A stretch of 64,000 bases of DNA from Chloroflexota bacterium (lineage in GTDB: Bacteria; Chloroflexota; JAJPGV01): contig JAJPGV010000034.1 in NCBI GenBank assembly GCA_021325635.1, positions 60,745-124,744 on the forward strand. Direction: 5' to 3'. The notes beneath the pieces were generated by a model that was not told the DNA's origin, did not search any database, and saw only the letters and a list, made by a program, of their open reading frames with translations. Every line of letters begins with the position of its first letter. Position 1 is the stretch's first letter. Made by a program: the position numbers and the translations under genes. Of the stretch, positions 3,000 through 60,053 are shown in pieces.

Positions 3000-3147
3000 C
3001 CGGTGGTTATCGATCGCTGGCTGCGCCCTGTGCCTTCACCGGCCGGTCCACTCACGCTGCTTGAGTCTACACCGCCATCCTGAGCCGTATTTATAGTTCG
3101 AGTGCTCGAGTTCGAAACCGATATCACGAGCATCGGAGTAAGCGCAT

Positions 3148-3618: not shown

Positions 3619-3835
3619 CCGCCGCACCGCTGCCGCAGTAGTACCTGCGGAGCACCCCCTGGGTGCTATTTCCTAGGTAAAGCTGGCATTCCCGCCGGAG
3701 ATGGCGTACTCTAGCCGCGATGCGGGAGGCTGAAGGGCGGCTGCCATCCTGGGCGTGCCGGGCTAGCCGAGCAGGTGTGTCGTTTGTGGGTAGCTGGAGG
3801 GCTAGGCCCAACACGGCTGTGAGAGAGAGCAGCGT

Positions 3836-24825: not shown

Positions 24826-25448
24826 GTTTGGCCGGGCTGCGAGCCGGCCAACAGCAGCAGCGCGTTCATCGCTGCCGCTGCAACCGGTGATCCCCCGCGG
24901 CTGCCCTCCACGGTTATGAAGGGCGTCGCGCGCTTCATCAGCTCCTGCTTCGACTCCGCCGCCGCGACGAAGCCCACGGGTACGCCGATGATCAGCGCCG
25001 GCTGGCAGATGCCGGCATCCACCATGTCCAGCAGCGCCAGCAGCGCCGTGGGGGCGTTGCCGATGACGGCCAAACCGCCTTCCAGGTCGCTGGCCAGCTG
25101 GCGCATGCCCGCGGCGGCTCGGGTAATGCCGGCCGCCGTCGCGTCGGTGGAAAAGTCCGTAGACACCGCCACACGCACGGGGTTCGCGCACGCTCGCAGC
25201 CCGGTCGCCACCATGCGTACGTCGCACACGATCGGCGCCCCGGCGCGGATGGCTTCCAGGCCCGCGTCGACCGCATCGGGATGAACGTGGGCCAAGCCAG
25301 CCAGCGCCAGGTCGCCGGCGGCGTAGACCATGCGCTTGACCACGTCTCGCGCTTCCGAGGTCCATCCGCTGCAGGCAGGAATGGCGCCCTCGACCAGCTG
25401 CAGGCTGCGCGCTTCGATCTCCACCGGCGGTAGGCCGTAGCGGTCCAT
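24822..25448 (-). CDS. cobH: Precorrin-8X methylmutase (CobH/CbiC)
   Basis: 208 aa (MDRYGLPPVEIEARSLQLVEG ...). ATG at 25448 overlaps the cbiX stop (TGATG). Confidence 0.85.
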   Translation of the reverse strand: MDRYGLPPVEIEARSLQLVEGAIPACSGWTSEARDVVKRMVYAAGDLALAGLAHVHPDAVDAGLEAIRAGAPIVCDVRMVATGLRACANPVRVAVSTDFSTDATAAGITRAAAGMRQLASDLEGGLAVIGNAPTALLALLDMVDAGICQPALIIGVPVGFVAAAESKQELMKRATPFITVEGSRGGSPVAAAAMNALLLLAGSQPGQT

Positions 25449-26254
25449 CAGACTGCGGTCAGACACATGGCTCCCCAGGCGCAGTTGACGCCGGGCATAC
25501 GGCAGCCCATGCCGGCGCGACAGGGGCATAGCCCGGCCCGCGCTTCTTCGATGCGCTGCAGGAACAGGTCGAAGATCAGCGGATGCAGGCCCATGTGGCT
25601 GGCCACCTGCACCTCCGCGCGCGCGTCCACCGCCTGAACGCTGATGCGCTTGGCCAGCACCCCCGTGTTCAAGAAGTAGGGCACGACCAGCACGCGGCGG
25701 GCGCCCAGCCGAAAACAGCGGTCGATGCCTTGGGGCACGCCGGGCGGCGCGACGCTCACGAAGCACGATTCCACCCAGCCATAGCGGTTGCGATCCCAGA
25801 GCATGCGCGCGGTCTTGTGCAGGTCGGCGTTGGCTTCCGAGCTGAGGCTGCCGCGACCGACCAGCAGCACCGCCGTATCCGGACCGGGTTCGAATGGCGC
25901 CAGACGGTCCTCGATCACGCGCAGCAGCCGCTCGTCCACGCCCAACGGCCCGGCCAGCGTGACGCGAAGCTCCGGATGCCGCGCTCGAGCCAGCTCCAGC
26001 TGCTCCGGCATGTCGTCCCGCGTATGACCGGCAAAAAAGAGCAGCGCAGGCAGCCCCACAATGTCCGTGACACCGCGCGCCGCGGCCCGGTCGAACGCGG
26101 TCTGCACGTCCGGCAGCGTCTCGCCCGGATACTCGAGCACGCCAGCTTCCACATGCTCGCCGGTGCGCCGGCGAAGACCCTCGACGTAGCCCAGGAATTC
26201 GGCCGTTCCCTCGGGATCCTTGGTGCCGTGGCCCAAGACCACGATCCCCTGCAT
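25448..26254 (-). CDS. cbiX: Sirohydrochlorin cobaltochelatase, long form (CbiX-like) with Cys-rich C-terminal tail
   Basis: Two CbiX-type halves (MQGIVVLGHGTKDPEG ... VLLVGRGS) and a C-terminal Cys cluster (CPCRAGMGCRMPGVNCAWGAMC). Start trimmed to ATG 26254. Confidence 0.8.
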   Translation of the reverse strand: MQGIVVLGHGTKDPEGTAEFLGYVEGLRRRTGEHVEAGVLEYPGETLPDVQTAFDRAAARGVTDIVGLPALLFFAGHTRDDMPEQLELARARHPELRVTLAGPLGVDERLLRVIEDRLAPFEPGPDTAVLLVGRGSLSSEANADLHKTARMLWDRNRYGWVESCFVSVAPPGVPQGIDRCFRLGARRVLVVPYFLNTGVLAKRISVQAVDARAEVQVASHMGLHPLIFDLFLQRIEEARAGLCPCRAGMGCRMPGVNCAWGAMCLTAV

Positions 26255-26288
26255 GGCGGCCGTCAGCGCGCCCTCGGAGCCGTCGGCC

Positions 26289-28406
26289 TCAATTGCCCCG
26301 ACCCAGCGCGCCGCGCACGACGCCGGCCACACGGCTCGCGTCCAGCTCTTCGAGTCGCAGGTACTGCCCGCCCATGTCGGCCGCCAGCGTCCGCGCCAGC
26401 CCGAGCCGCAGGCCCGGGCCACCTTCGGTATCGATGACCACCGACTGGATGCGCTTGTGCGCGAATTGCGCGCCCAGCAGGCGCGACTCAGCCACGGGGT
26501 CACCGCCCAGCAGCGAGACGTTGGGCCGTCCGTCCGAGATCAGCACGAACAGCGGTACGGCGTCACGATGCAGCGTCTTGTGGCGGTCGATCGTCACCAG
26601 CCCAAGCTGCAGGGCGTGGCTTAGGGGGGTACGGCCGCCGGTAGGCAGCTCGCGCAGCTGGCGCTCGGCCAGATCGACGCTGTTAGTCGGCGGCAGCAGC
26701 ACCTCGCCGAACCGACCACGGAAGGCGATCATACCCACCTCGTCGCGCTTCTGGTAGGCATCGAGCAGCAGCGACATGACCGCGCCCTTGGCCGCCGCCA
26801 TGCGGTCCATGGCTGCCATCGAGCCGCTGGCGTCCACGGCGAACAGGATCAGGTTGGCAAGCTTCGTCTCGCGGACCTTGACCCGAACGTCCTGGGCCAT
26901 TACGGCGACCTTTCTTGCGGCCGCCTTCCTGTCCCGCTGTCCCGGCGCGGACGAGGCAGGGTCCGTTCGCTGCTGAGCCCGCCGCAGGGCTGACGCCCGC
27001 AGGGTAGCGTCGAGCGCGAGGTCTTGCACCTCGCCGTCCGGCTCTCGGCTGCCGACGTAGTGCCCCTGCCGGCCCGAGAGGCGCAGCTTGGTCCTGCGGC
27101 CGGCGTGTGGCTGCGTGACGCGCTCGGCCTTGGAGGCTCCCAGTGGTCGCGGCTGCAGCCGCTGTCCGATGTCGAACACCCGGTCTTCGGTGTCCCCTCC
27201 AGCCGGGCCATCGCCACCGCCGAGGCCCTCGTCGCCATCCGGGCGGTCGAGGTGCTGACGGATCGTTTGGTCGAGCTGCTCGCGGTCCGCTTCGGGGGAC
27301 TGGAAGGGCTGACGCCGGCGGCGATGAGGCAGGGCCAGCTCGGCGGCCTGGCGCACGTCGTCGTCGTTGACCTCGACGCGTCCGTTGTAGGCGGCAATGG
27401 TGATGGCCGTCTTGTACATGACGATGTCGGCGCGCAGCCCGTCGACCTGGAAGCTCGAGCAGATGTGGGTGATGAGATCGAGCATGCGTTCGTCGAGCTG
27501 CACCTTCCCCAGCAGCCGTTGGGCGTGGGCGATGCGTCGCCGCTCGGCCCTCTCGGCAGGCTGCCAGGTATGCGCAAAGCGCGCCGGGCTGCGCTCGAAG
27601 GCAATGCGGCGCCGCACTACCTGCGCGCGGTCGGCGGGCGGCAGGTCTCCCGCGACGTCCACCGAAAGCGCGAAGCGGTCCAGCAGCTGCGGGCGCAGGT
27701 CGCCTTCCTCGGGGTTCATGGTGCCGACCAGCAGGAACTGCGCCGGGTGCTGGAAGGAGATGCCCTCGCGCTGCACGTAGTTGCGGCCCATGGCCGCGGC
27801 GTCAAGCAGCACGTCGACCAGGTGGTCGTTCAGCAGGTTGACCTCGTCGATGTACAGGATGCCGTGATTGGCGGCCGCCAGCAGTCCCGGCTTGAAGCGC
27901 ACGCTGCCCTTGGCCAGCGCACGGCCAACGTCCAGACTGCCGACTACACGATCGTCGGTCGCGCCGACAGGCATCTCCACGATCTCGACTGCGCGGCGCG
28001 TGGACGGGAGCGACAGCGCCGGCTTGGGGGCCCTCACGGGGGTGAGGGGCATGGGCTCCAGGGGTGGATCGGTCTCAACAGGGGGTGGCGCCGCGCGTTC
28101 GTGCTGCTTGGACACCTTCTTGGCTCGCCGGTCGGCCTCCTGGCGGTGCTCGGCCTGCAGCGGGCAGGACTCGCCCGGATGGCAGTTGTACGGGCAGCCG
28201 GGCGTGACCTCGATCTCCGGCAGGAGGTTGGCCAGGGCACGAACCGCGGTCGACTTGGCCGTGCCCTTCTCGCCGCGGATCAGCACGCCGCCGATCTTGG
28301 GGTTGATGGCGTTCAGGATCAGCCCGAGCTTCATCTGCTCCTGGCCTACCAGGGCGGTGAAGGGAAAGACGCAGCCCGCGCCGGAACTCCCTGCGCGGTC
28401 ACTCAC
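26289..28406 (-). CDS. Chelatase ATPase, fused ChlI-like AAA+ and ChlD-like vWA domains (CobN partner)
   Basis: 705 aa. N-terminal AAA+ with Walker A (GEKGTAKST) and Mg-chelatase subunit I-like sequence; acidic/Pro-rich linker; C-terminal vWA domain with MIDAS motif (VDASGSM). Confidence 0.85.
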   Translation of the reverse strand: MSDRAGSSGAGCVFPFTALVGQEQMKLGLILNAINPKIGGVLIRGEKGTAKSTAVRALANLLPEIEVTPGCPYNCHPGESCPLQAEHRQEADRRAKKVSKQHERAAPPPVETDPPLEPMPLTPVRAPKPALSLPSTRRAVEIVEMPVGATDDRVVGSLDVGRALAKGSVRFKPGLLAAANHGILYIDEVNLLNDHLVDVLLDAAAMGRNYVQREGISFQHPAQFLLVGTMNPEEGDLRPQLLDRFALSVDVAGDLPPADRAQVVRRRIAFERSPARFAHTWQPAERAERRRIAHAQRLLGKVQLDERMLDLITHICSSFQVDGLRADIVMYKTAITIAAYNGRVEVNDDDVRQAAELALPHRRRRQPFQSPEADREQLDQTIRQHLDRPDGDEGLGGGDGPAGGDTEDRVFDIGQRLQPRPLGASKAERVTQPHAGRRTKLRLSGRQGHYVGSREPDGEVQDLALDATLRASALRRAQQRTDPASSAPGQRDRKAAARKVAVMAQDVRVKVRETKLANLILFAVDASGSMAAMDRMAAAKGAVMSLLLDAYQKRDEVGMIAFRGRFGEVLLPPTNSVDLAERQLRELPTGGRTPLSHALQLGLVTIDRHKTLHRDAVPLFVLISDGRPNVSLLGGDPVAESRLLGAQFAHKRIQSVVIDTEGGPGLRLGLARTLAADMGGQYLRLEELDASRVAGVVRGALGRGN

Positions 28407-28412
28407 AGCTCG

Positions 28413-31400
28413 TCATGTCTCCGTCCTTACCTCCAGCGCGGCTTCCATCTGCAGGTATGCCCCCTGGAGGGCATCGCGCTGCTCCTGCGAGGGATTTTTC
28501 CACATTCCACGCTCTATGGCTTCGAGCAGCCGCTCGGCGATATTGCGCAGCGCCCAGGGGTTTTTCTCGGCGAAGAAGGCCTGCATCGCCGGGTCCTGGA
28601 CGTAAGCCTGGGTAGTCCGCTCGTACATCCAGTCCTCAACCACCTGGGCCGTGGCGTCGTAGCCGAACAGGTAGTCGACAGTAGCGGCCAGCTCGAACGC
28701 GCCCTTGTAGCCGTGGCGCTTGATCGACTCGATCCACTTGGGGTTGATCACGCGACTGCGAAAGACGCGGCGGGCCTCGTCGTCCAGGTCGCGCACGCGC
28801 ACCAGCGCGGGATTGGCGCTATCCCCGAAGAACTGCCGCGGATTCTTGCCGGTAAGGGCGCGAATCGTGGCGATCATCCCGCCGTGGTACTGCATGTAGT
28901 CGTCGCTGTCGAAGATGTCGTGCTCGCGGTTGTCCTGGTTCTTGGTGGCAATGGAGATCTCGCCGAAGCGCTGCTCGAACTGTGGCCGGGCGGGCTTTCC
29001 GTACTCTTCGCGCGTATACGCGAAGCCGCCCCAGGCGGTGTAGACCTCGGCCAGGTCCTGGTCCGAGGCCCAGTTGCGCGCGTCGAGCAGCGGAAGGATG
29101 CCGGCGCCGTAGGTTCCCGGCTTGCTGCCGAAGATGCGATACAGAGCCTCCGGGGTCGATCCGTCACGGCGATAATGCGCCGCCACAAGATTGCGCTCGT
29201 CGCTCTCGTCCAGGCGGGCCACCAGCCGGAAGGCGTCATCCAGGAGCTGCACCAGGTTGGGGAAGGCGTCGCGGAAGAAGCCGCTGATGCGCACCGTGAC
29301 GTCGATGCGCGGCCGGCCCAGCTCTTCAATGGGGATCAGCTCCACGCCGGTCACGCGGCGGTTCTCCTTCATCCACACCGGCCGTACGCCCAGCAGCCAC
29401 AGGATCTCGGCGACGTCGTCGCCCTGGGTGCGCATGGCCGAGGTGCCCCACACGACGATGCCCACCGACTCGGGGTAGCGGCCCTCCTCGGCCAGGTACT
29501 TGGCCAGCAGCGCGTCCCCGAGCTGACGGCCGATGTCCCAGGCAGCGGGCGACGGCAGGGTCTTGGGATCGACCGAATAGAAGTTGCGCCCGGTAGGCAG
29601 GACGCTGGCCATGCCCCTGGTCGGCGCCCCCGATGGGCCAGGCGGAATGAATCGACCTTCGAGCCCGGCCAGCAGGTTGTCGATCTCCTCGCCGGTTCGC
29701 GCCAGTGCCGGGATCAGGGATTGCTTGACATAAGAACTGGTCGAGCATGCATCCGCCGCGACGGACAGTGCTTGCTCGGCGTCCTGCATGCCGAGAGCGT
29801 CGGCGACGGCCCGGTCCACCGGCTGTCCGTCGACGATCGCCTGCACCAGCTGATGGTTGCGAGCTTCGATGTGCTCGACGGCGTCACCATTGGAGCGCAC
29901 GCCGTCCAACGGAGGCCCGGAATACGGAGCGCCACGGTCGGCCAGCAGCACGGCGTAGTCGGGAATACCCAGCGCCTCGGCCATCGAGCTGCGCAGCGAG
30001 GGGGCCTCGACGTTGTCCAGCCGGGTGAGGGCCAGCAGCAGATCGACCAGCTGTTCGCCTGCCGGCGCCTGCCCGAGGACGTGCAGGCCGTCCCGGATCT
30101 GGGAGTCTTTCAGCTCACACAAGTAGCCGTCGACGTGCAGCAGGAAACCGTCGAAGTCCTCAGGCAGCTCGTCCTCGCCCAGGTCGTGGTGGAGCTGTGC
30201 CTGCACGACTGCATCCCAGATCTGCCCGCGGATGATGGGCGCCTTGCGTGGGTCCAGCGTCTGCACCTGGTAGTACTCGTCCATCAGCTGCTCGATGCGC
30301 ACGATCTCGTTGTAGGCATCGGCGGTCGTCATGGCCGGAATGAGGTGGTCGACGATGGCGGCGTGGCTGCGCCGCTTGGCCTGCGCGCCCTCGCCGGGGT
30401 TGTTGATGATGAACGGGTAGAAATGCGGCAAGTCGCTGATGGCCAGCTCGGGGTAGCAGCTTGGCGACAAGCCCAACGACTTGCCGGGCAGCCATTCCAG
30501 CGTGCCGTGTTTGCCGACGTGCACAATCGCGTCGGCCTGAAAGACGTCACGGATCCAGCGGTAATAGGCCAGGTAGTGGTGCGTCGGCGGCAGATCCGGC
30601 GAGTGGTAGATGGCGATGGGGTTCTCTCCGAACCCGCGCGGCGGCTGCACCCCCAGAAAGACGTTGCCCAGCAAGATCCCAGGCATGGCGAGGGAGGGCT
30701 GACCCCTCTCCGCCAGGAACACCGTTCCGGGCGGAGAGCCCCAGGCTTCGACCAGCTCGCGCTGGTTGGTAGGTGGGAATTGGTCGAACCAGGCGCGATA
30801 CTGCGCCGCGCTGGCGTGGCCGGCGGCGTCCCGGAGCTGCTGCTCGGTAAGCATCTCGCGGTCGTTGGAGCAGCGATCGATGAGCTGGAACACCAGCTCG
30901 TCGCCCGATTCCGGGAGGTCGCCGGTGTCGTACCCAGCCCCTTGCATGGCCTTCAGCACTTCGAGCACCGAGGCCGGCGTATCCAGCCCCACGGCGTTGC
31001 CGATACGGGCGTTCTTGGTGGGGTAGTTGCTGAGCACGAAGGCCACGCGCTTCTGGGCGTTGGGTGTGCGCCGCAGCCTGGCCCAATTGCAGGCCAGGCG
31101 GGCGAAGGCGTCCACGCGCTCGCGGTCGGCCACGTAGCGTAGGACGGGACTGCCCAAGAGCTCATCCTGCGCCAGCTCCTCCTTGAACGACACGGGCACG
31201 GTGATGATGCTGCCGTCGAACTCCGGCAGCGCGACGTTCATGGCCGTGTCGATGGGGCTCAGGCCGGCCGAGCTGCGCTGCCAGGCCTCACGCGAGCTGG
31301 TGCTCACGATGGCTTGAAGCACCGGCACGTCCAGCCGCTGCAGCCACTCCACGGAGCCGGCGCCCATGGAGAAGCTGAGTGTGTTGATGATGGCGTCGAC

Positions 31401-32228
31401 CCTGGCCTCGCGCAGCAGCGGCTCGATCTGGGCTGCGTGCTCCGGCTTGAGTGAATAGACGAAGATCGGCAGCGGCCGGCATCCCAGCTCCTGCAGCCGC
31501 TCCGCCAGCGCATCCACGAAGTCCGTGTTGCCACTCATCCAGTGGGCCCGATAGAACAGGAGGGCAATCGCCGGCGAGAGTGCCGAGTGCCGCGTGCCGG
31601 CGAGAGTGCCGCGTGCGGAGTGCCGGCGAGAGTGCCGAGTGCCGCGTGCCGCGTGCGGAGTGCCGGGCGCCGAGCCTTCTTCCCCGCTGTCAGGCTGGGC
31701 GTCGAGCGAAGCATCCTCGCCCTCCCAGTCGGCGTTCGTGGCCTGGTCGGGCTCGCCAGCTACAGCTCCGGCGCGCTGGTACAGCCCGAACCACGGCAGC
31801 TCGGCGGGCGGCTCAGCGGCCTCTCCGGACAGTCGGAGCAGCAGGTTGCGGACATTGGCCGCGCCGCCGTGGGACACGTAGGCGAAGACCTCGTGCACCA
31901 ACTCAGGAGGGGCTGTGCTGAGCGCGGTCAGCTCCGGGTCCGGGACGGAGTCGCCGGCGCACGCGATGAAGGGCACGTTCCTGCGCACACAGCAGTCGCG
32001 GATCAGGTCGAAGCCCGCCTCCAGCGTCCGGCGGCCGCCCAGCAGGCGCACGACGACGGCGGTCTGGGCGCGTTCCACCGTGTCCGCGACGAAGCGCTGC
32101 AGGACGCGGTCAGAGCTGAGCGAGGCCACGCTGCAGGCGCGGACGGCGGGGACTCCCTTCGGCAGGGCCCGAACCACGTTGGACAGTGTGAGGATGTCGG
32201 TGTCCGCGGTGGTCAAAAAGACGATCAA
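28413..32228 (-). CDS. cobN: Cobaltochelatase large subunit CobN
   Basis: 1271-aa ORF with CobN-like N-terminus (IVFLTTADTDILTL) and length. Apparent TTG start at 32228 preceded by GGGAGAG at 8-nt spacing. Confidence 0.9.
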   Translation of the reverse strand: MIVFLTTADTDILTLSNVVRALPKGVPAVRACSVASLSSDRVLQRFVADTVERAQTAVVVRLLGGRRTLEAGFDLIRDCCVRRNVPFIACAGDSVPDPELTALSTAPPELVHEVFAYVSHGGAANVRNLLLRLSGEAAEPPAELPWFGLYQRAGAVAGEPDQATNADWEGEDASLDAQPDSGEEGSAPGTPHAARGTRHSRRHSARGTLAGTRHSALSPAIALLFYRAHWMSGNTDFVDALAERLQELGCRPLPIFVYSLKPEHAAQIEPLLREARVDAIINTLSFSMGAGSVEWLQRLDVPVLQAIVSTSSREAWQRSSAGLSPIDTAMNVALPEFDGSIITVPVSFKEELAQDELLGSPVLRYVADRERVDAFARLACNWARLRRTPNAQKRVAFVLSNYPTKNARIGNAVGLDTPASVLEVLKAMQGAGYDTGDLPESGDELVFQLIDRCSNDREMLTEQQLRDAAGHASAAQYRAWFDQFPPTNQRELVEAWGSPPGTVFLAERGQPSLAMPGILLGNVFLGVQPPRGFGENPIAIYHSPDLPPTHHYLAYYRWIRDVFQADAIVHVGKHGTLEWLPGKSLGLSPSCYPELAISDLPHFYPFIINNPGEGAQAKRRSHAAIVDHLIPAMTTADAYNEIVRIEQLMDEYYQVQTLDPRKAPIIRGQIWDAVVQAQLHHDLGEDELPEDFDGFLLHVDGYLCELKDSQIRDGLHVLGQAPAGEQLVDLLLALTRLDNVEAPSLRSSMAEALGIPDYAVLLADRGAPYSGPPLDGVRSNGDAVEHIEARNHQLVQAIVDGQPVDRAVADALGMQDAEQALSVAADACSTSSYVKQSLIPALARTGEEIDNLLAGLEGRFIPPGPSGAPTRGMASVLPTGRNFYSVDPKTLPSPAAWDIGRQLGDALLAKYLAEEGRYPESVGIVVWGTSAMRTQGDDVAEILWLLGVRPVWMKENRRVTGVELIPIEELGRPRIDVTVRISGFFRDAFPNLVQLLDDAFRLVARLDESDERNLVAAHYRRDGSTPEALYRIFGSKPGTYGAGILPLLDARNWASDQDLAEVYTAWGGFAYTREEYGKPARPQFEQRFGEISIATKNQDNREHDIFDSDDYMQYHGGMIATIRALTGKNPRQFFGDSANPALVRVRDLDDEARRVFRSRVINPKWIESIKRHGYKGAFELAATVDYLFGYDATAQVVEDWMYERTTQAYVQDPAMQAFFAEKNPWALRNIAERLLEAIERGMWKNPSQEQRDALQGAYLQMEAALEVRTET
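31571..31666. repeat. Imperfect tandem repeat (period about 26 nt, roughly 3.5 copies) inside cobN
   Basis: Units of the form cggcgagagtgccg(agtgccg)cgtgc repeated head to tail; encodes the low-complexity stretch ARGTRHSRRHSARGTLAGTRHSALSP in a CobN linker. Confidence 0.7.
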
Positions 32229-34124: not shown

Positions 34125-34197
<73 letters not shown>

Positions 34198-44779: not shown

Positions 44780-45134
44780 GCCAAGCAGGCCGGGCAATCG
44801 CGGACGCGCCTCAGGCCGTCCGAGGAAAGTCCGAGCTCCACAGGGCAGGATGCTGGGTAACACCCAGTGGGGGTGACCCCAGGAAAGTGCCACAGAAACA
44901 TACCGTCTGCCGCAAGGCAGATAAGGGTGAAACGGCGAGGTAAGAGCTCACCGGCAGCCGGGTGACCGGCTGGCCAGGCAAACCCCATCCGGAGCAAGAC
45001 CGAGCAGGGGCGGGTGGCCCGCCTATGCCCCGGGTTGGTCGCTGGAGACGGACGGTAACGGCCGTCCTAGAGGGATGATTGCCGGTCCGCTGGAAACGGC
45101 GGACTACAGAACTCGGCTTACAGGCCTGCTTGGC
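44780..45134 (+). ncRNA. rnpB: RNase P RNA (bacterial type A)
   Basis: Conserved regions read directly: GAGGAAAGTCCGAGCTCCACAGGGCAGG (CR-I), ATAAGGGTGAAACGGCGAGGTAAGAGCTCACC (CR-II/III), ACAGAACTCGGCTTACAGG (CR-V). P4 shows compensatory changes (GTCCGAGC with CTCGGC). P1 pairs GCCAAGCAGGCC with GGCCTGCTTGGC. Confidence 0.9.
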
Positions 45135-45143
45135 TGCCCTCCG

Positions 45144-46660: not shown

Positions 46661-47959
46661 ATGATCGAGCGCTATTCGCACCCCGAGATGGCTCGGGTGT
46701 GGTCTATCGAGAACCGCACCGATCAGTGGCTGAAGGTCGAGCAGATGGTGGTGCAGGTGCGCTTCGAGCGCGGCGAGGTGCCGGCTGAAGCCAACGAGAT
46801 TGTCCAAACGCAGGCGCGTTACGACCTGGCGCGCATGGACGAGATCGAGCGGGAGACGCACCACGATCTGGTGGCCTTTGTGCGCTGTGTCGGCGAGTCG
46901 ATTGGCGATGCGTCACGCTACGTGCACGTCGGTCTCACCTCGACCGACGTGGTCGATACCGGCCTGTCGGTGCAGATTGCCCAGGCCACCGACATCCTCG
47001 AGCGCGACGTCCAAGAAGTCATCGCTACGCTGGAGAGGCTGGCACTTCAGTACAAGTACACGCCCATCATGGGCCGCAGCCACGGCATGCACGCCGAGCC
47101 CAGCAGCTTTGGGCTGAAGATGGCGCTGTGGATAGACGAGATGCGCCGCAACGCCACCCGGCTGCGCCAGGCGCGGGAGCAAATCGCGGTGGGCAAGATC
47201 TCGGGCGCCGTCGGCACCCACGCCAACGTCGAGCCGGAGATCGAGGAGGCGGTGTGCGCCAAGCTGGGCCTGCGCGCGGCGCCCATCTCCACCCAAACGC
47301 TGCAGCGCGACCGGCACGCGCACTACATGTCCACGCTGGCCATCATCGGCACTTCTCTGGAGAAGATGTCCACCGAGATCCGCCACCTGCAGCGGACCGA
47401 GGTGGGCGAGGTCGAAGAGCCGTTCGAGACCGGTCAGGCCGGCTCGTCGGCCATGCCGCACAAGCGCAATCCCAGGCTCAGCGAACGGGTCTGCGGGCTC
47501 TCCCGCGTCGTTCGAGGCTATGCCCTGGCCGCGCTGGAGGACGTTGCCCTGTGGCACGAGCGGGACATCTCGCATTCGTCGACCGAGCGCATCATCCTGC
47601 CCGATGGCTGCCTGGCCCTGGACTACATGCTGCGGACCTTCAATCGGATCATGAAAGGGCTGGTCGTCAAGCCCGATCGTATGCTGGCCAACCTCGAAAT
47701 GCTCCATGGCGTGATCTTCTCGGAACGCGTCCTGCACGCCTTGATCGATGCCGGGATGAGCCGCACCGATGCCTACTACCTCGTCCAGCGGGCTGCGCAC
47801 GAAGCCATGGACCACAATGTCAGCTTCCGCGAGCGGCTGGTGGCCGAACCTTCCATCCGAGAACGGCTGACGGACGAGCGGCTGGACGATCTGTTTGGTT
47901 ACGACTACCACCTGAGGCACGTCGACACCGCCTTCCGGCGCATTGGCCTCGATTCTTGA
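46661..47959 (+). CDS. purB: Adenylosuccinate lyase
   Basis: 432 aa with fumarate-lyase signature (GSSAMPHKRNP) and PurB-like sequence throughout. Confidence 0.95.
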   Translation: MIERYSHPEMARVWSIENRTDQWLKVEQMVVQVRFERGEVPAEANEIVQTQARYDLARMDEIERETHHDLVAFVRCVGESIGDASRYVHVGLTSTDVVDTGLSVQIAQATDILERDVQEVIATLERLALQYKYTPIMGRSHGMHAEPSSFGLKMALWIDEMRRNATRLRQAREQIAVGKISGAVGTHANVEPEIEEAVCAKLGLRAAPISTQTLQRDRHAHYMSTLAIIGTSLEKMSTEIRHLQRTEVGEVEEPFETGQAGSSAMPHKRNPRLSERVCGLSRVVRGYALAALEDVALWHERDISHSSTERIILPDGCLALDYMLRTFNRIMKGLVVKPDRMLANLEMLHGVIFSERVLHALIDAGMSRTDAYYLVQRAAHEAMDHNVSFRERLVAEPSIRERLTDERLDDLFGYDYHLRHVDTAFRRIGLDS

Positions 47960-49073
47960 TCCGCTGTGGGCGCCTAACGACCAGCAGGTCCTGTTCCACG
48001 GTCGCGTAGGCGCGCTGCGCCTGGCCGATGGGCGATCCCTGGTCGTCGAGGGGGCAGCTAGCCGGATCGACGACTCGCCAGCAGAGCCACCGGACAACAG
48101 CGTTGCCGCCCCAGACCGCTCGCTGCCGGTCAGGCGGCCTGCGTACCTGAATGCCGTGCCCCTGTTCGCACCGCATGTCCCGGATGCGGAAGCCGGCAGC
48201 TGGGATGACATCGCGCCCGAGCTGTGGGCCAGCCGATTGGAGCCGGACAGCTTCGTGCGCCAGGATCCCTACACCGGCGGTCTGCTCCGCGTCTGCCAGG
48301 CACTGCGCTGGGCGGCGGTTGCGGACCTCGATCCGCTGGCGGTTTCGTTCAGCCTCAGCTATGGCGATGGAGGGTCCCCGGAAGCGCAGTACCAGCTGAC
48401 CAGGTGCGTTCAGGGCGCGGCCGATGCGCTCGCCATGGCTGGCCTGGCGGCGGTGTCGGGCGAAATCGAGTGCGCGGAGGCTGGAGCGGATCCGAACTTG
48501 CGCATCTGGCTGCACGGCGCGGCGGGATCGGTGTCATCGGCGGGTGAGATCGGCAGCCGGCGAGAAGCGCAAGGGGCGCGTTCGTGGTTCGCCGACTCTG
48601 GCTCTGCCATCGTGCATCTCGGCCGCGCGACGAGCGATCTGAGCGGCAGCCTCTACCTGGAGCGCCGTGGGGTACAGGAGACACTGCCTCCGCCGATCGA
48701 CTTGATTGCCGAGGGCCGGGTGCTGGAGGTCGTTCGCGAGGCTCGAGGGCTGGGGCTCCTCCAATCACTCAGGCCGGTTGGTCGTGGCGGCCTGCTGATA
48801 ACATTGGCGCTGTGCTGCGCTCAGCTGGGGCTGGGTGCCGAGACCGCGGTTCCTGAGGCGTGGAGCTCCATCGACCCGGCGGCAGTCCTGTTCGGCGAAG
48901 CGCAGTCGAGGTTTCTGGTATCAGTCGCGCCAGATGATGTGCCGCGCCTGCAGCAGATCGCCGGTGCGATCGGCGTGCCGGCGCTGACGTTGGGAACGAC
49001 CGGTGGCGCCGATCTGACGGTGGGCAGTCTGATACACATCGCGGGGAGGGTGCTTAAGGAATGGCCGATCTGA
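47943..49073 (+). CDS. PurM-superfamily (AIR synthase-related) protein of unclear function
   Basis: 376 aa. C-terminal region (LFGEAQSRFLVSVAPDDVPRLQQIAGAIGVPALTLGTTGG) resembles AIRS C-terminal domains of PurL/PurM-type proteins; too short to be a PurL. Overlaps the purB stop by 17 nt. Confidence 0.5.
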   Translation: MASILDPLWAPNDQQVLFHGRVGALRLADGRSLVVEGAASRIDDSPAEPPDNSVAAPDRSLPVRRPAYLNAVPLFAPHVPDAEAGSWDDIAPELWASRLEPDSFVRQDPYTGGLLRVCQALRWAAVADLDPLAVSFSLSYGDGGSPEAQYQLTRCVQGAADALAMAGLAAVSGEIECAEAGADPNLRIWLHGAAGSVSSAGEIGSRREAQGARSWFADSGSAIVHLGRATSDLSGSLYLERRGVQETLPPPIDLIAEGRVLEVVREARGLGLLQSLRPVGRGGLLITLALCCAQLGLGAETAVPEAWSSIDPAAVLFGEAQSRFLVSVAPDDVPRLQQIAGAIGVPALTLGTTGGADLTVGSLIHIAGRVLKEWPI

Positions 49074-49420
49074 ACACAATGCTGGAGCGCTTCACAGCGA
49101 TCGAGGGCGTAACCCTGGCGGCGGTCGTCGGCACCGATGGTTTGGTGATCGAGAGCGCAGGCAAACCCGAATTCGACGTGGAGGCGGTGAGCGCCGTGGC
49201 AACGAGCGCGCTGGGATCGGCCCAAGCGCTGTCGGAGGAAGTCACCCGCGGCGCACTGACGCAGGCCATGGTCGAATTCGAGAGAGGCGTCGTTGTCCTG
49301 GAGCCGGTGGGCGAGCTCGGCGTGCTGGTGGTCCTCACCGAGAGTGTGTCGAACATCGGCCGGGTAAGGCTGGTGGCTCGTCGCGAACGCGAAGCGCTGG
49401 AGCAGGCTCTGGCGTCTTAA
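49061..49420 (+). CDS. Roadblock/LC7 (MglB-like) domain protein
   Basis: 119 aa with a Roadblock/LC7-like pattern (AAVVGTDGLVIESAG ... LGVLVVLTESVSNIGRVRL); overlaps the upstream gene by 13 nt. Confidence 0.65.
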   Translation: MADLNTMLERFTAIEGVTLAAVVGTDGLVIESAGKPEFDVEAVSAVATSALGSAQALSEEVTRGALTQAMVEFERGVVVLEPVGELGVLVVLTESVSNIGRVRLVARREREALEQALAS

Positions 49421-49532
49421 CGTCTTCTTCGGGGGCAGTCGCTGCTAACATCGAGAGAGTCGCGACTGGCGCTAAGGTGGAGCACCACCGGGGAGCGACC
49501 GTGGAAATTGCCGCGCGCCTGGGCACATCAAG

Positions 49533-51065
49533 ATGTTCGGGAGACAGCGCGTGAGAGTCCTCATCTCAGTTTGGGATAAGACCGGCCTGGTCGACTTCGC
49601 CCGACGCCTGGCAGCACTCGACGTTGGGCTGGTGTCCAGCGGCGGCACGGCGGCGGAGCTGCGGTCCGCCGGCTTGAAGGTGCAGGAAGTGGCCGACGTC
49701 GCCGGCTTTCCCGAGATCCTGGGTGGACGCGTCAAGACGCTGCACCCGGCCATCCACGGCGGCATCCTGGCCCGCCGCGACGATCCGGAGCACATGGAGC
49801 AGCTGGAGCGGCACGGTATTACGCCCATCGACATGGTGGTCTGCAACCTCTATCCCTTTGCCGAGGACCCGTCGATTGAAATGATTGATATCGGTGGGGT
49901 AGCGTTGATCAGGGCCGCGGCCAAGAACCATGATTCGGTGGCCGTGGTGGTCGATCCGGCCGATTACGACGTCGTCCTGGCGGAGCTCGAGCTCCACCAT
50001 GAGGTGAGCGAGCCCACGCGGCGGCGGCTGGCCGAAGCAGCCTTTGGTATGACCTCGGCCTACGACGCGCGCATCGCGGGGTGGTTCAATCGCGGCAACC
50101 GGAAGCTGTTTCCGCGGCGGCTTGCCCTGCCGATGGAGAAGCAGCTCGACCTGCGCTACGGTGAGAACCCGCACCAGCAGGCGGCCTTCTACTCAACCCC
50201 CACCGCCGGTGACTATCCGTCGCTGGCCCGTATGCGCCAGCTTCACGGCAAGGAGCTGTCGTTCAACAACCTGCTGGACATGGACGCCGCCGTCAATTGC
50301 GCGTCCGCGTTCTCAGAGCCATGCATCGCCATCATCAAGCACAACAATCCCTGCGGACTGGCGGTCAGGGAGCAGCTGGACGAGGCTTATCGCCAGGCGC
50401 TGGCCGGCGATCCTGTGTCTGCCTTTGGAAGCGTCATCGGCAGCAATCGGATCGTAGATGCAGCCACGGCTCGCGAAATGAGCCAGCTGTTCATCGAAGT
50501 GATCGTGGCGCCCGGCTTCGACGCCGAGGCGGCTGAGGTTCTCGGCGCCAAGAAGAACATTCGCCTGGTAGAGCTGCCGGGGGATTGGGCGGAGCAGCCC
50601 GATCCCTTCCGCGATCTTGACATAAAGCGTGTAAGAGGTGGCTTCCTCGTGCAGTCACTGGACTTCGATAGCCGGGATCTGGGCTGGACGGTCGTTACCA
50701 GGCGCCAGCCAACGGCCGTCGAAAGCGAGCAGCTTCGGTTCGCCTGGAAGGTGGTGCGACACGTGAAGTCCAATGCCATCGTGCTGGCCAAGGACACGAT
50801 GGTCGTGGGGATAGGGCCGGGACAGATGAGCAGGGTGGAATCGACCGACATCGCCGTGAAGAAGGCTGGCGAGCGGGCCACCGGGGCGGTGCTCGGCTCC
50901 GACGCGTTTTTCCCGTTCCCGGATGGTCTGGAGCACGCCATCGAGGCCGGCGTCACGGCGGCGATCCAGCCGGGCGGCGGCGCCCACGATAGCGACGTCA
51001 TCGCCGCTGCCGACCGGGCAGGCATCGCCATGGTCTTCACCGACGAGCGGCACTTCAAGCACTGA
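49533..51065 (+). CDS. purH: Bifunctional AICAR transformylase / IMP cyclohydrolase
   Basis: 510 aa with PurH N-terminal MGS-like (LISVWDKTGLVDFA) and C-terminal AICARFT regions. Confidence 0.95.
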   Translation: MFGRQRVRVLISVWDKTGLVDFARRLAALDVGLVSSGGTAAELRSAGLKVQEVADVAGFPEILGGRVKTLHPAIHGGILARRDDPEHMEQLERHGITPIDMVVCNLYPFAEDPSIEMIDIGGVALIRAAAKNHDSVAVVVDPADYDVVLAELELHHEVSEPTRRRLAEAAFGMTSAYDARIAGWFNRGNRKLFPRRLALPMEKQLDLRYGENPHQQAAFYSTPTAGDYPSLARMRQLHGKELSFNNLLDMDAAVNCASAFSEPCIAIIKHNNPCGLAVREQLDEAYRQALAGDPVSAFGSVIGSNRIVDAATAREMSQLFIEVIVAPGFDAEAAEVLGAKKNIRLVELPGDWAEQPDPFRDLDIKRVRGGFLVQSLDFDSRDLGWTVVTRRQPTAVESEQLRFAWKVVRHVKSNAIVLAKDTMVVGIGPGQMSRVESTDIAVKKAGERATGAVLGSDAFFPFPDGLEHAIEAGVTAAIQPGGGAHDSDVIAAADRAGIAMVFTDERHFKH

Positions 51066-55284: not shown

Positions 55285-56214
55285 GTGACCCTATCGGAGG
55301 CGCGCCAGGAATTCCTGGACTATCTGGCCGAGCGGAACAAGTCCCTGCGCACCGTGCGCACCTATGGCTTTGCCATCAACAAGTTTCTGTCGTTCGCCGA
55401 GACGCAGGGCTTGACCGCGGAGGCTGAGGCCGGCGGTGTGGACAGCCGGCTGCTTCGAGCCTACAGCCGCCATCTTTTCCACCAGCGGCTGTCCGCCAGC
55501 GGCCGCAAGACCTACCTGGTAGCGCTGACGGCCTGGTTCAAGCATCTGGCCGCCGCCGAGGTGTGCCAGGTCAATACCGACGCCATCGAGCTGCCCAAGG
55601 TCACGCCCGAGCCGCCGAGCCCCGATGAGCGCCTCCCCGATCTGCTCCGGGGCGACCCTCCGCCGTTCCAGTCGGCCGACCAGGAGCTGTCCTGGCTTCG
55701 GGATCGCGCGCTGCTCAGGGTGCTGTTCGATACCAACGCCCGTGTGTCCGAGGTTGCGGCCCTGAACAGGCAGTCGGTCGACTTCGAGAAGGGGCTGGCC
55801 GTCATCGTCGGCAAAGGGGGCAAAGTTCGGACGGTGTTCTTTTCCGATCCCTGCCTGGAGGCCGTCAACCGCTATCTCGACGCGAGGAATGACGACTTCG
55901 ACCCGATTTTCGTTCGACATAACGTTGCCAGGAAGGCCGAGCGTGTCGATCGGGATGGGAACGTGCTGCGGCTGTCGGTCAGGTCCATCCAATTGATCGT
56001 GCGCAAGTACGCTCGACGAGCTGGCATCCGCGCCACGCCGCACTCGTTCCGCCATTACGGCGGGACCGAGATGGTGAGGTCGGGCGCCGACATTCGCAGC
56101 GTGCAGGAGTACCTCGGACACAAGAGCGTGTCGACGACACAGATCTACACGCACGTGTCGCCTCAGCGGCTGATGGACGAGTGGAAGCGCTTCCACCCGG
56201 CAGGGAATACCTAG
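55285..56214 (+). CDS. Tyrosine site-specific recombinase (XerC/XerD-like)
   Basis: N-terminal SAM-like domain and C-terminal catalytic region with HSFRHYGG and GHKSVSTTQIYTHV (catalytic Tyr). Confidence 0.85.
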   Translation: MTLSEARQEFLDYLAERNKSLRTVRTYGFAINKFLSFAETQGLTAEAEAGGVDSRLLRAYSRHLFHQRLSASGRKTYLVALTAWFKHLAAAEVCQVNTDAIELPKVTPEPPSPDERLPDLLRGDPPPFQSADQELSWLRDRALLRVLFDTNARVSEVAALNRQSVDFEKGLAVIVGKGGKVRTVFFSDPCLEAVNRYLDARNDDFDPIFVRHNVARKAERVDRDGNVLRLSVRSIQLIVRKYARRAGIRATPHSFRHYGGTEMVRSGADIRSVQEYLGHKSVSTTQIYTHVSPQRLMDEWKRFHPAGNT

Positions 56215-57274: not shown

Positions 57275-57562
57275 ATGAGCAGCAGCGGTTCCAGCAAAGT
57301 CCAGGGCACACCGTGGAAAGGGTGGGCCGAGGACATGGTTGACGCGTCAAAGCTGTGCGAGATTCTCGGCTATTCGACGAGCGATCCGAAGGTCGTCGGG
57401 GACGATGCTGCCGATAAGATCATCCGCATGGAAGCGGCGGTGGAGCGGGCCCGCATTTCAGGACGAATCCGGCGGTTCAGCGTTCTCAACACCGCCACCG
57501 GCGAGGTGCTGGCGTATGGCTACAAGCGAGCCGACGTACGCCGCATTCTTGGCATACCCTAG
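57275..57562 (+). CDS. Hypothetical protein (95 aa)
   Basis: ORF preceded by GGGGAGAG; balanced composition; no recognisable motif. Confidence 0.35.
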   Translation: MSSSGSSKVQGTPWKGWAEDMVDASKLCEILGYSTSDPKVVGDDAADKIIRMEAAVERARISGRIRRFSVLNTATGEVLAYGYKRADVRRILGIP

Positions 57563-57592
57563 CGTTCGCGAAGCTTTTCAGGAGTCAGAGGA

Positions 57593-58069
57593 ATGGACGA
57601 TCAAGCAAAGAAAACCGCGCTGCGCATGATTCCCTACGGCCTTCAGGTGCTGGGCGTTTCAGACGGCACGCAGCTCGACGTGGCCAGCATCAATTGGACC
57701 ACCCAGGTGTCCTTTCAGCCGCCGCTGGTGGTCATCGGCGTGAAGAAGGACAGCAAGCCATTCGGCATCCTCAAGGCCGGCGGCAAATTCGCCCTCAGCT
57801 TTCTCGAAAGTGGTCAGCGGGATCTTGCCTTTGCCTTTTTCAAGAGCGTGGAGCCGGCCGACGGCAAGTTCGGCAGCTATGCCTATGAGACGGCCCAAAC
57901 CGGCTGTCCGATCATCAGCGACGCCGCATCGTGGATCGAGGCTGAGGTGGTCTCGATTGACGAGACGGGCGATCACGCCGCGGTCATCGGCCGTGTCGTC
58001 AACGCCGGAGTGAAGCGAGAAGCGAAGCCGCTGACCCTGGCCGAGATGGGCGTCAACTACGGCGGCTAA
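57593..58069 (+). CDS. Flavin reductase family protein (NAD(P)H-flavin oxidoreductase-like)
   Basis: 158 aa with flavin-reductase-like sequence (MIPYGLQVLGV ... VASINWTTQVSFQPPLVVIGV). Confidence 0.8.
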   Translation: MDDQAKKTALRMIPYGLQVLGVSDGTQLDVASINWTTQVSFQPPLVVIGVKKDSKPFGILKAGGKFALSFLESGQRDLAFAFFKSVEPADGKFGSYAYETAQTGCPIISDAASWIEAEVVSIDETGDHAAVIGRVVNAGVKREAKPLTLAEMGVNYGG

Positions 58070-58071
58070 CC

Positions 58072-58113
58072 GCTAGCTCGAAGGAAGGTCCCGGGCGTTC
58101 GTGACCCGAGATC
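58072..58113 (+). terminator. Probable intrinsic terminator after the flavin reductase gene
   Basis: Stem ggaaggtcccggg / cccgagatcttcc with a 9-nt loop, followed by a T/C-rich tail, 3 nt after the stop. Confidence 0.45.
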
Positions 58114-58212
58114 TTCCTTTCCTCGGTATGCATGTTCGTATAATTACCGTTAAGCGAATACACCAACAGGCCCATTGCTTGTGACGCGCTTTTCTGGCAG
58201 ACTGAAAGAGCC

Positions 58213-59139
58213 ATGGCAGTATCGTCGATTGACTCCAGTCTCGCGTCGCTTCTGCAGCTGAGCCAGAATCCGCTGTTCGGGTCATCGAGCAGCCAGGGCC
58301 TGTTGGCGCTGGCGCAGCAGCTGGCCCAAGGTGCAGCGGCGGCTCAAGCAATACCGGCCACGCTGCCGGCGTCACTGATCTCGGCGCCGGCGAACGGTGG
58401 CATCGATGTGACCGGCGGAGGTTCAGTTGTGACGAACGTCGGTGGCATCAGCGGCGTCACCTCCGGCACAGCCACCATCGACGTGACCGCTCTGGCCGCG
58501 TCCGGCCAGCTGACCGGCTCAGCCGCGACGACCAGCGGCGCGACGTTTGCAGGTGGCGGGTCTTTGACCATAACCGGACCCGGAGGCAGCGTCTCCCTCA
58601 GCACTACGGCCGGTGAGACGGTGGGCCAGCTCATACAGGCGATTAACAGCTCCGGCGCCGGGGTGAACGCCGCGCTCAACAGCTCCGGCAAGCTGCAGCT
58701 CACGACCAGCGGCGCTGGGGCGGATCAAGCGATCACGGTCAGCGCGGTCTCCGGGGCGGACATCACGACCACCTTGGGCCTGACCAACGCCAGCGCCAGC
58801 GGCACGAACGCCACCGCGGTCGTGAACGGAACCACGTTCACCGCGGAAAGCGGCAACCAGTTCCATCTTTCCGGCATCGGCGCGGGCTCGCTGCTGGGCC
58901 TTACGTTCAGCGCTGCCAGCACCGGCACCACCAGCGTGACCGTGTCAGCCAGCCGCTCGACGGTGAACGTGCCACCACCGGTTTCGAGCTCACCTGCAAA
59001 CGCCCTGCAGTCCGTGCTGGGTACGAACGATTTCACGCTGGCGTCGCGGCAGCTGGCCAATGCACTGCTGCTGCAGCAGTTCTCGCTGTTTGCCCTGCAG
59101 CAGCAGAGCCAGGCATTCGGCCTCCAGAACCTGCTGTAG
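58213..59139 (+). CDS. FliD-like (flagellar cap protein-like) low-complexity protein, orphan
   Basis: 308 aa, Ser/Thr/Gly/Ala-rich. Central segment ETVGQLIQAINSSGAGVNAALNSSGKLQLTTSGAGADQAITVS resembles the FliD central domain pattern; Gln/Leu-rich helical termini. No other flagellar genes in the window. Confidence 0.45.
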   Translation: MAVSSIDSSLASLLQLSQNPLFGSSSSQGLLALAQQLAQGAAAAQAIPATLPASLISAPANGGIDVTGGGSVVTNVGGISGVTSGTATIDVTALAASGQLTGSAATTSGATFAGGGSLTITGPGGSVSLSTTAGETVGQLIQAINSSGAGVNAALNSSGKLQLTTSGAGADQAITVSAVSGADITTTLGLTNASASGTNATAVVNGTTFTAESGNQFHLSGIGAGSLLGLTFSAASTGTTSVTVSASRSTVNVPPPVSSSPANALQSVLGTNDFTLASRQLANALLLQQFSLFALQQQSQAFGLQNLL

Positions 59140-59255
59140 ATCGCTGGCTGGGCCAGCTGCCGTCGGAGTCCGCTTCTCGGCCCCTACCTCTTCATTCGTC
59201 GATGTTCCTATCGGCATTATGTCAATGCGCGTAGGGTATGCTGAGGAGCGTTCGT

Positions 59256-60053
59256 ATGACTGACGTCAACCTCCTTCCCCGAATCGCCGACGTCGAGCGC
59301 ATCGAGCTCGACAGGTTGATCGCCTATCTGCGCGATCTGGATGAGGCCGGCTGGGTCGAACAGTCCTACTGCTTCGACTGGGCCGTTTATCAGGCGGTGT
59401 CGCACCTCGCCTCGGGCCTCCGAATCACCAAGATGCGATTGAACCACTGGGTCAACAGCGGACCCGAGGTGTCGCGTGAGCAGATGGAGGCGGTGTGGGA
59501 GCTGTTCGACAGCCTGCGGCCGGCCGACGTGGGCTCGGAGTTTCAGAAGGCCACGGGCGAGTATCTGGTGGCGCTGCGTGCGCTCCCCGACGAGGCCGGG
59601 CTGCTCGAAGTAGACGGTTTTCGCGGTGTTCGGCCACTGTGGGTGTATCAGCTCGGCCGGCTGCATGAGCTGGCCGTGCACAGCTGGGACATCTTCATCG
59701 CTCGCGATCGCACTGCTCGGCTCCCGGCCGCGGCAGTCGAGCTGTTTGCCGGCCAGCTGCACAATCTCTTCACGGCGGGCGACATCGAGCGCGGCCGTGA
59801 GCTCACCGAGGGCCGCCGGGTTGAGCTGCGGACAGCGAATCCGGATTTCCGTTACCAGCTGAACAGCACTGGCGTACGCCTCAGGCTCGAGCCCGCCGGC
59901 TCGGAAGCGGCCGACCTCATCGTCGAGGGACCGGCCGAAGAGGTTTGCCGGCTGACAGCGGGCCGGCACTTCCTACCTGGCAGCCTACGTCAGCTCACCG
60001 TCATCAGCGGTCCGCCCGGCGACCTGGGCAAGCTCTGCCGGGTCTTTCATTAG
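59256..60053 (+). CDS. DinB-like / mycothiol-dependent maleylpyruvate isomerase N-terminal domain family protein (TIGR03083-like)
   Basis: Sequence pattern (WAVYQAVSHLASG ... HSWDIFIA) recalled as this family; ATG 59256 preceded by GAGGAG at 6-nt spacing. Confidence 0.6.
   Translation: MTDVNLLPRIADVERIELDRLIAYLRDLDEAGWVEQSYCFDWAVYQAVSHLASGLRITKMRLNHWVNSGPEVSREQMEAVWELFDSLRPADVGSEFQKATGEYLVALRALPDEAGLLEVDGFRGVRPLWVYQLGRLHELAVHSWDIFIARDRTARLPAAAVELFAGQLHNLFTAGDIERGRELTEGRRVELRTANPDFRYQLNSTGVRLRLEPAGSEAADLIVEGPAEEVCRLTAGRHFLPGSLRQLTVISGPPGDLGKLCRVFH

Follow-up and report, generated by a model that had tools for sequence, protein, structure and literature searches.

Flagellins have evolved around a D0/D1 core, which is conserved because it builds the filament, while their outer domains come and go. 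In some family members the core is retained with few additions: FlaC keeps D0/D1 without the outer domains, and FlgL (HAP3) consists of D0/D1 with a Flagellin_N domain, its outer domain being small or absent. In the filament, the 11-start and 5-start contacts are those of D1, and the FliS-binding site of FliC comprises its last 40 residues (PMC8306008). Campylobacter FlaC is described as a secreted non-structural flagellin that is exported through the flagellum (PMC4863622, PMC5466977), and p5 and p6 of Sphingomonas sp. A1 (PDB 2zbi, 3k8v) are flagellin-family proteins of the cell surface that bind alginate (PMC9751261). We have analyzed a stretch of 64,000 nucleotides (nt) from a Chloroflexota bacterium (contig JAJPGV010000034.1), referred to below as the window, and observed that the open reading frame (ORF) at 58213-59139 (+) encodes a flagellin paralogue, from an uncultured Chloroflexota clade, from which the D1 polymerisation core has been excised. 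A literature search disclosed no description of a flagellin family member that has the outer domain and lacks D1, a result which, given the incomplete literature coverage of the search, is absence of evidence only.

The ORF, whose coordinates include the stop codon, begins with ATG and specifies a protein of 308 amino acids (aa). Its G+C content at third codon positions is 0.81, as in neighbouring genes, its codon-position GC pattern is normal, and it is a real gene. The identical protein is present in several public sources, including contigs of 427,198 bp and, in run SRR5581483, 5.1 kb. A first-pass annotation of the window had described a Ser/Thr/Gly-rich protein of this length with Gln/Leu-rich helical termini, and we found both descriptions to be accurate: S, T, G and A together make up 56% of the residues (composition analysis; isoelectric point 4.2), and the structural model places helices at residues 27-45 and 271-307. 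Only 11 of the 308 residues are charged and there is no Cys or Trp, a composition like that of the flagellins of this lineage. A check for a signal peptide, which had been proposed with that description, was made by simple inspection and gave neither a Sec/Tat-type signal nor a transmembrane segment; the N-terminal tail has no basic n-region or hydrophobic core, and the best 19-residue Kyte-Doolittle window reached 1.2.

The search with FliD and flagellin family profiles that had also been proposed returned a single significant Pfam match, to Flagellin_IN (PF07196) at aa 117-166, positions 58561-58710 (+), with E=1.1e-10 and 42 bits (cut-off 22.7). Flagellin_N, Flagellin_C, FliD_N and FliD_C gave no match in the window protein even at E<=10. 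NCBIfam gave only partial matches to FlgL and FliD models, with scores of 18-20 bits against cut-offs of 337-444, and a sequence search of solved structures with the window protein yielded nothing significant. The closest relatives in a large protein database were of 2 kinds, short forms of 302-310 aa and flagellins of 452-458 aa, and those that are named are flagellins of uncultured Chloroflexota metagenome-assembled genomes (MAGs). The short relatives P0002 and P0003 (302-310 aa) share the layout of the window protein and are 50% identical to it. The flagellins P0004-P0007 (452-458 aa) are 54-55% identical to the window protein over its central 56-67%; in them both Flagellin_N (E 1e-22 to 1e-27) and Flagellin_C exceed the Pfam cut-offs, and the short forms carry Flagellin_IN only, or no Pfam domain. 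With E values of 1e-38 to 1e-46 against the flagellins and an hhalign probability of 100%, the window protein and the flagellins are of common descent.

We used multiple alignments together with an hhalign profile-profile alignment to map what the short form has lost. The latter (100%, E=3e-55) placed aa 24-308 of the short form on flagellin aa 104-451, with one gap of ~65 residues directly after the outer domain, and left ~80 N-terminal flagellin residues without a counterpart. The window protein has lost the long ND1a helix entirely, along with the D1 beta-hairpin, the CD1 helix and the greater part of ND0. What remains of flagellin in it is a short tail at the N-terminus, a helix of the ND1b type that is degenerating, the entire beta-rich outer domain and, at the C-terminus, the D0 helix; these retained parts are now connected through 2 non-conserved linkers of 16 and 24 residues. 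In terms of the Pfam regions, only the last ~36 positions of Flagellin_N (ND0 plus ND1), corresponding to ND1b, could be aligned, and of Flagellin_C, which gave no Pfam match, CD0 is recognizable and CD1 is absent. The three-helix, lattice-forming core of D1 is missing, as both the helices of the model and the deletion map show.

The individual parts can be assigned as follows. The N-terminal tail, aa 1-23 (MAVSSIDSSLASLLQLSQNPLFG; 58213-58281, +), resembles the first 28 residues of flagellin P0004, with a local alignment score of 43 that was reached by 1 of 500 shuffles. The ND1b helix remnant, aa 24-45 (58282-58347, +), lies in the segment, aa 24-61, that hhalign equates with flagellin aa 104-141, and is modelled as a helix (27-45) with low confidence by the predicted local distance difference test (pLDDT). 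It is followed by the first non-conserved linker, aa 46-61 (58348-58395, +; pLDDT <50), and by the outer domain, aa 62-246 (58396-58950, +), whose fold is like that of FliD D2-D3 and is that of the flagellin outer domain of the lineage; short forms and full-length flagellins are 44-58% identical here (52-58% for the window protein). The second linker, aa 247-270 (58951-59022, +), is Pro/Ser-rich and stands at the site of the flagellin D1 beta-hairpin and CD1 helix. The C-terminal D0 helix, aa 271-308 (...ASRQLANALLLQQFSLFALQQQSQAFGLQNLL; 59023-59136, +), modelled as a helix from 271 to 307, aligns with the last ~40 residues of the full-length flagellins at 51-56% identity.

For comparison, full-length flagellin P0004 was modelled with AlphaFold. 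It has the canonical layout, with an ND0 helix (aa 12-40), an ND1a helix (aa 43-98), an ND1b helix (aa 104-127), a beta-rich outer domain (aa 143-321), a D1 beta-hairpin (aa 325-339) and a CD1 plus CD0 helix (aa 359-452), and its best structural matches are filament flagellins (E ~1e-15). More generally, the full-length Chloroflexota flagellins (P0004-P0007, P0010 and P0151-P0161) resemble the window protein in outer domain, D0 helix, low charge and the N-terminal start MAVSS..., and differ from it in having Flagellin_N and Flagellin_C and a canonical D0/D1 core, the window protein being without ~80 N-terminal and ~65 C-terminal residues.

The short architecture is not peculiar to the window. 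A HMMER search of 1.84 billion representative proteins gave only 25 matches at E<=1e-3, and these included a further short orthologue, P0009 (312 aa), and a short-form fragment, P0011, which brought the short orthologues beside the window protein to 4 (P0002, P0003 and P0009 being full-length), all with the same architecture. The boundary of the C-terminal deletion is identical in all 5 short forms, and intact short ORFs of 302-312 aa with the same domain boundaries are present in lineages that are only ~50% identical; the short architecture is conserved in at least 5 lineages. Mean pairwise identity among the 4 full-length short proteins is 56% for the outer domain and 53% for CD0, and it falls to 25% for the ND1b remnant, 20% for the linker at aa 46-61 and 23% for that at aa 247-270. 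Since identity is high only in the outer domain and CD0, selection acts on these 2 modules. When the outer domain was analyzed by neighbour joining, the full-length flagellins clustered with 61% bootstrap support and the short forms fell outside them in unresolved order; the tree fits one old deletion event, without proving it.

By the criteria of fold alone, the protein appears closest to the flagellar cap. The structure prediction that had been suggested as a check produced a confident beta head (aa 85-245, pLDDT 80-94), flanked only by helices at 6-14, 27-45 and 271-307, all of low confidence. The top 28 PDB matches to this model all come from chains of the FliD cap, in most cases by way of D2-D3, with 9m67_A as the best (E=2e-7) and 5h5w_A from E. 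coli at a target template-modelling (TM) score of 0.65 and 24% identity; for the FliD structures 5h5w, 9m67 and 9gnz together, the match to the central domain has E 2e-7 to 1e-5, TM <=0.65 and 20-24% identity. Flagellin outer domains were found in this search only at E ~1e-2. In a tblastn comparison, a Firmicute FliD was 33% identical over aa 99-234. The central segment is therefore as reminiscent of FliD as the first-pass annotation had claimed: FliD and the window protein both have a Flagellin_IN motif, and both have helical termini around a beta head of the D2-D3 type.

The same annotation had also remarked that the protein has about half the usual FliD length, and that it is a half-length FliD we cannot uphold. 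FliD has FliD_N, FliD_C and a D1 bundle; the window protein has no FliD_N (PF02465) or FliD_C (PF07195), scores 18-19 bits against NCBIfam FliD equivalog cut-offs of 375-444, and lies in no fliS/fliT/fliC late-gene cluster, having no flagellar neighbours in the window. A control FliD, P0018, which is a Firmicute FliD in a normal late-flagellar cluster, gave E=1.6e-29 and 6e-15 with FliD_N and FliD_C. The nearest homologues of the window protein are instead flagellins with Flagellin_N and Flagellin_C, its terminal helices are homologous to flagellin, and its C-terminal helix and first 23 residues are flagellin-type rather than FliD-type. The model of P0004 matches FliD through the outer domain only, and the FlgK proteins P0014 and P0016 of related MAGs carry a closely related IN module (37-43% identity). 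The FliD-like fold is thus the outer domain of the lineage's own flagellin, a module present also in FlgK, and the likeness to FliD is inherited and does not signify FliD identity; one outer-domain module appears to be common to FlgK, FliC and the short paralogue of the lineage. At 2410-4450 of locus L017 (contig JAFARK010000089.1), we noted FlgK P0014, which like P0016 and P0013 has one or more Flagellin_IN modules. Nor can the protein be dismissed as generic low-complexity or disordered sequence, the outcome that had been named as the alternative, in view of the confident beta-rich fold. It represents a conserved family, and can be described neither as a FliD cut short nor as disordered low-complexity sequence. 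A role as a repurposed cap or an adhesin-like surface protein, which that annotation had proposed, may still apply to it.

Comparison with the other flagellin derivatives leads to a similar distinction. FlgL is a flagellin paralogue of similar length (~300 aa), and the window protein gave a weak partial match to NCBIfam FlgL model PRK06663 (E=2e-4; 20 bits against a cut-off of 337) by way of the IN-motif region; however, we found neither a Flagellin_N-type D0/D1 core nor a neighbouring flgK, and the architecture of the window protein is the opposite of that of FlgL. FlaC represents the reverse truncation: the FlaC-like arrangement, in which D0/D1 is kept and the outer domains are lost, is not that of the window protein, and no sequence relationship to FlaC extends past general flagellin homology, so that only a proposed mode of action would be analogous. 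Sphingomonas A1 p5 and p6, which resemble the window protein in being flagellin family members in non-propulsion use, keep the D1 core; they match the P0004 model, and neither is among the first 50 PDB matches that the window protein gave.

The short gene and the full-length flagellin genes also occupy different chromosomal settings. In the flagellin locus, which we observed in L004, L005, L006 and L018-L023 (e.g., L018 1018-5855), the order is a large (~600-aa) protein, fliC, PNP_UDP_1, a XerC-like integrase, NUDIX and recA, with a sigma-54 gene further downstream of recA; fliD and fliS are not adjacent in this conserved locus, in contrast to Tepidiforma, for which a fliC-fliD-fliS cluster has been described. 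recA is not a neighbour of the window gene. We considered synteny of the window with the flagellin locus through the integrase at 55285-56214 and rejected it, the 2 integrases being 27-30% identical and no other neighbour being common. Since the loci are not syntenic, the short gene is a paralogue at another locus and not the product of a deletion in place. Species-representative genome contigs, a set to which the window genome does not belong, held 2 full-length loci only, and a metagenome scan gave 6 loci, with no sample containing both short and full-length forms; flagellin P0155 comes from samples other than run SRR5581483, which holds the window gene.

The first-pass annotation had placed a terminator hairpin and a TATAAT-containing, AT-rich, promoter-like stretch upstream of the gene, and these claims were only partly sustained. 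The intergenic region to the 5' side of the gene is 143 bp. An imperfect hairpin does exist at 58080-58120 (+), beginning 11 nt past the stop codon of the upstream flavin-reductase gene; it has a stem of 11+4 bp, a folding free energy of ~-22 (centroid) to -28 (minimum free energy) kcal/mol and a z score of -2.69, and none of 200 shuffles folded equally well. Since it lacks a U-tract, it is not a canonical intrinsic terminator and does not satisfy the terminator consensus; a 3' stem-loop and a terminator that dispenses with the U-tract are its possible identities. The perfect TATAAT hexamer is present at 58139-58144 (+), 10 bp from the position previously given (58129-58134) and 69 nt to the 5' side of the ATG. 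This candidate -10 element is the sole perfect copy on both strands of the 64 kb, for which 1.3 are expected, but it has no acceptable or recognizable -35 partner, and no sigma-70-type promoter pair was called; a promoter and terminator consensus scan of 57500-59700 returned none of either. The AT enrichment is real but modest, the stretch having a GC content of 54-57% compared to ~66% for the window.

A sigma-28 promoter candidate, TAAG-N15-GCCCATTG (58151-58177), which resembles the consensus TAAA-N15-GCCGATAA, was rejected. The pattern, defined after it was seen, is unique in the window; among 300 shuffled versions of the upstream region, 180 attained an 8/12 match, and the motif does not recur upstream of the orthologues or of the flagellins. 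Separately, several full-length flagellin genes (L004 9960-10003; L002, L003 and L014) show by eye a TTGAC-type -35 and, only ~6 nt before the ATG, a -10-like hexamer, which suggests that their transcripts are very short or leaderless. Nothing comparable to this ATG-proximal pattern was seen upstream of the short gene.

What such a protein might do is suggested by the parts that have been kept. The best-supported reading, one that we favour tentatively and at somewhat less than an even chance, is that of a flagellin paralogue which does not polymerise but would still follow the FliS/flagellar export route. The principal lateral and axial contacts within the filament are made by D1, and because D1 has been lost, the window protein should not enter the filament lattice. 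The C-terminal ~40 residues would be bound by FliS as those of a filament-type substrate, FliS would deliver the protein to FlhA, and the flagellar type III apparatus would export it. Outside the cell it would carry the outer domain without polymerising, either in free form or on display at the end of the filament; its mode of action would be broadly that of Campylobacter FlaC. We infer continued handling as a filament-type export substrate from the fact that the FliS-binding C-terminus is one of only 2 constrained parts of the protein.

Several observations weigh against this proposal. The most conserved N-terminal segment of flagellin (QLASGNRL..., approximately positions 12-100 of the Flagellin_N profile) is deleted. 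This segment overlaps the N-terminal export signal that has reportedly been mapped in Salmonella, and its loss argues against efficient export. The flagellin-like N-terminal tail is clear only in the window protein and weaker in the other orthologues, and the termini of the window protein are modelled at pLDDT <50. As the first-pass annotation had noted in calling the gene an orphan, no flagellar gene was found in the 64 kb. Pfam scans of the 40 largest window genes returned no flagellar family and the 5 called downstream genes, annotated in L001, are non-flagellar (~45 window genes examined), and tblastn of the window with FlgF, FlgG, FlgK, FlgM, FlgN, FlgL, FliD, FliS, FliW, CsrA and FlaG recovered only the ORF itself, through its IN module. 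The families present are those of purine synthesis, glycogen, cobalamin, citrate synthase, a XerC/D-like integrase, DUF3105, flavin reductase, CO-dehydrogenase-like subunits and a GGDEF-EAL response regulator. Orthologue P0009, at locus L009, likewise has no flagellar neighbours, and none in common with the window.

The absence of flagellar neighbours at both of these loci can also be read as favouring a relic, in which flagella have been lost and the outer domain, anchored or oligomerised through the D0 helix, serves a non-motility function, for example in a surface or matrix protein exported by another route. We regard this as possible but unlikely. Consistent with it, the short-form locus has only a 27-30% identical integrase paralogue in common with the recA-side flagellin locus, and repurposed flagellins are known, as in the cell-surface flagellins of Sphingomonas A1 (PDB 2zbi, 3k8v; PMC9751261). 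Flagellar gene clusters are reported to be widespread in Chloroflexota, with some lineages showing partial losses, with such losses and remnant flagellar genes described as pervasive, and with flagellar motility directly observed in only one genus (PMC10284905). On the other hand, no alternative export route is apparent in a protein with neither signal peptide nor transmembrane segment, and the constrained part besides the outer domain is exactly the FliS-binding D0 helix. Contigs that are compositionally nearly identical to the window carry intact, strongly conserved flagellins: the tetranucleotide profile of the window has a correlation of 0.98 with flagellin-bearing contigs L005 and L015, at a GC content of 66.4% versus 66.7-66.8%. 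Short-form contig L009 (GC 58%) is about equally close to L004 (correlation 0.94; GC 60%, same ENA study) and to L005 (0.95). Moreover, a related Chloroflexota-like MAG, GCA_019245465.1, has rod and hook-associated genes in a FlgF/G-FlgM-FlgN-FlgK cluster, the FlgK of which is P0014. We consider it somewhat probable that the host of the window gene is flagellated.

A broader formulation, in which the protein is a selected flagellin derivative without D1 that has taken on a new flagellar role, either as a D0-docked tip, cap or chain-terminating subunit under a FliD-like head or as dedicated export cargo in soil Chloroflexota, seems to us rather improbable in those specific terms.

Conservation of CD0 together with deletion of most of the N-terminal export region would also suit a cytoplasmic decoy or regulator, which is not exported and which adjusts the synthesis or export of flagellin by titrating FliS, or a partner of the FliW/CsrA type, with its C-terminus. 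Binding of FliS and FliW to the ends of flagellin links its synthesis with its secretion (PMC8306008), and the gene stands alone with its own upstream region. But such a regulator would not need the 185-residue outer domain, which is the best-conserved part (56%), and tblastn gave no FliW or CsrA gene among the lineage loci examined; we think this role improbable indeed. Equally doubtful, or slightly more so, is a flagellin-derived tip protein whose D0 helix docks at the distal filament end with the FliD-like head above it, as an alternative cap or a length-limiting chain terminator. Leg helices and a D2-D3-like head do mimic FliD, and the best PDB matches include cap-filament complexes; the D0 helix is flagellin-type, hence compatible with the inner tube of the filament, and linkers of 16 and 24 residues stand in place of D1. 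But the head is the outer domain of the lineage's flagellin and occurs in FlgK as well, so that its FliD likeness is not specific, and FliD_N, FliD_C and the FliD D1 are absent.

The family is tiny, with 25 proteins among 1.84 billion, and its ND1b remnant and linkers are drifting (20-25% identity), as they would in a decaying, functionless remnant of a flagellin gene; but with ORFs that have stayed intact at 302-312 aa with identical boundaries across lineages ~50% identical, with the outer domain and CD0 conserved and with a normal codon-position GC pattern, decay is very unlikely. That the protein is a genuine short FliD (HAP2) cap is scarcely credible, for the Flagellin_IN motif, D2-D3-like fold and weak partial NCBIfam FliD matches (E ~1e-3) that would speak for it are contradicted by the missing FliD_N and FliD_C, by NCBIfam scores far below the cut-offs and by termini and closest homologues of the flagellin type.

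Elsewhere in the window, we observed several features that are independent of the flagellin paralogue. Within the purine-synthesis group, a ZMP/ZTP riboswitch (RF01750, 59.8 bits) at 49452-49531 (+) lies directly to the 5' side of purH (49533-51065), and between purB and this riboswitch an AIR-synthase-related protein is followed immediately by a Roadblock/LC7 protein of 119 aa (47943-49420, +), which is an unusual pairing. The closest relative of PurH in ~5.8 billion proteins is 72% identical and most are <=58%, which places the window organism in a sparsely sampled lineage; its assignment to Chloroflexota in this analysis is based on how its flagellin relatives are labelled and on its nucleotide composition. 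A class A RNase P RNA (286 bits) and a tRNA gene are located at 44782-45136 (+) and 34125-34197 (+), respectively. An aerobic-type cobalamin group at 21838-32228 (-) contains 2 precorrin methylases, CbiD, a ChlI/VWA-type chelatase subunit and a 1271-aa CobN. Finally, a 637-aa protein at 13470-15383 (-), the ORF start of which is putative, has 2 electron-transfer flavoprotein (ETF) stretches and ETF_alpha, and appears to be an ETF beta-alpha fusion.

The family is very rare and its hosts are uncultured, which limits the impact of these findings. Nevertheless, the short family inverts the usual pattern of flagellin conservation, and does so across lineages that are ~50% identical. If the protein is truly an export substrate, Chloroflexota flagellar secretion would carry non-filament cargo, and the C-terminal D0/FliS-binding helix would be usable as a portable module; if its carriers have no flagella, the family would clearly exemplify the reuse of an outer domain of flagellin. 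In both cases the result is relevant to the naming of 'flagellin hook IN motif-containing' proteins by annotation pipelines.

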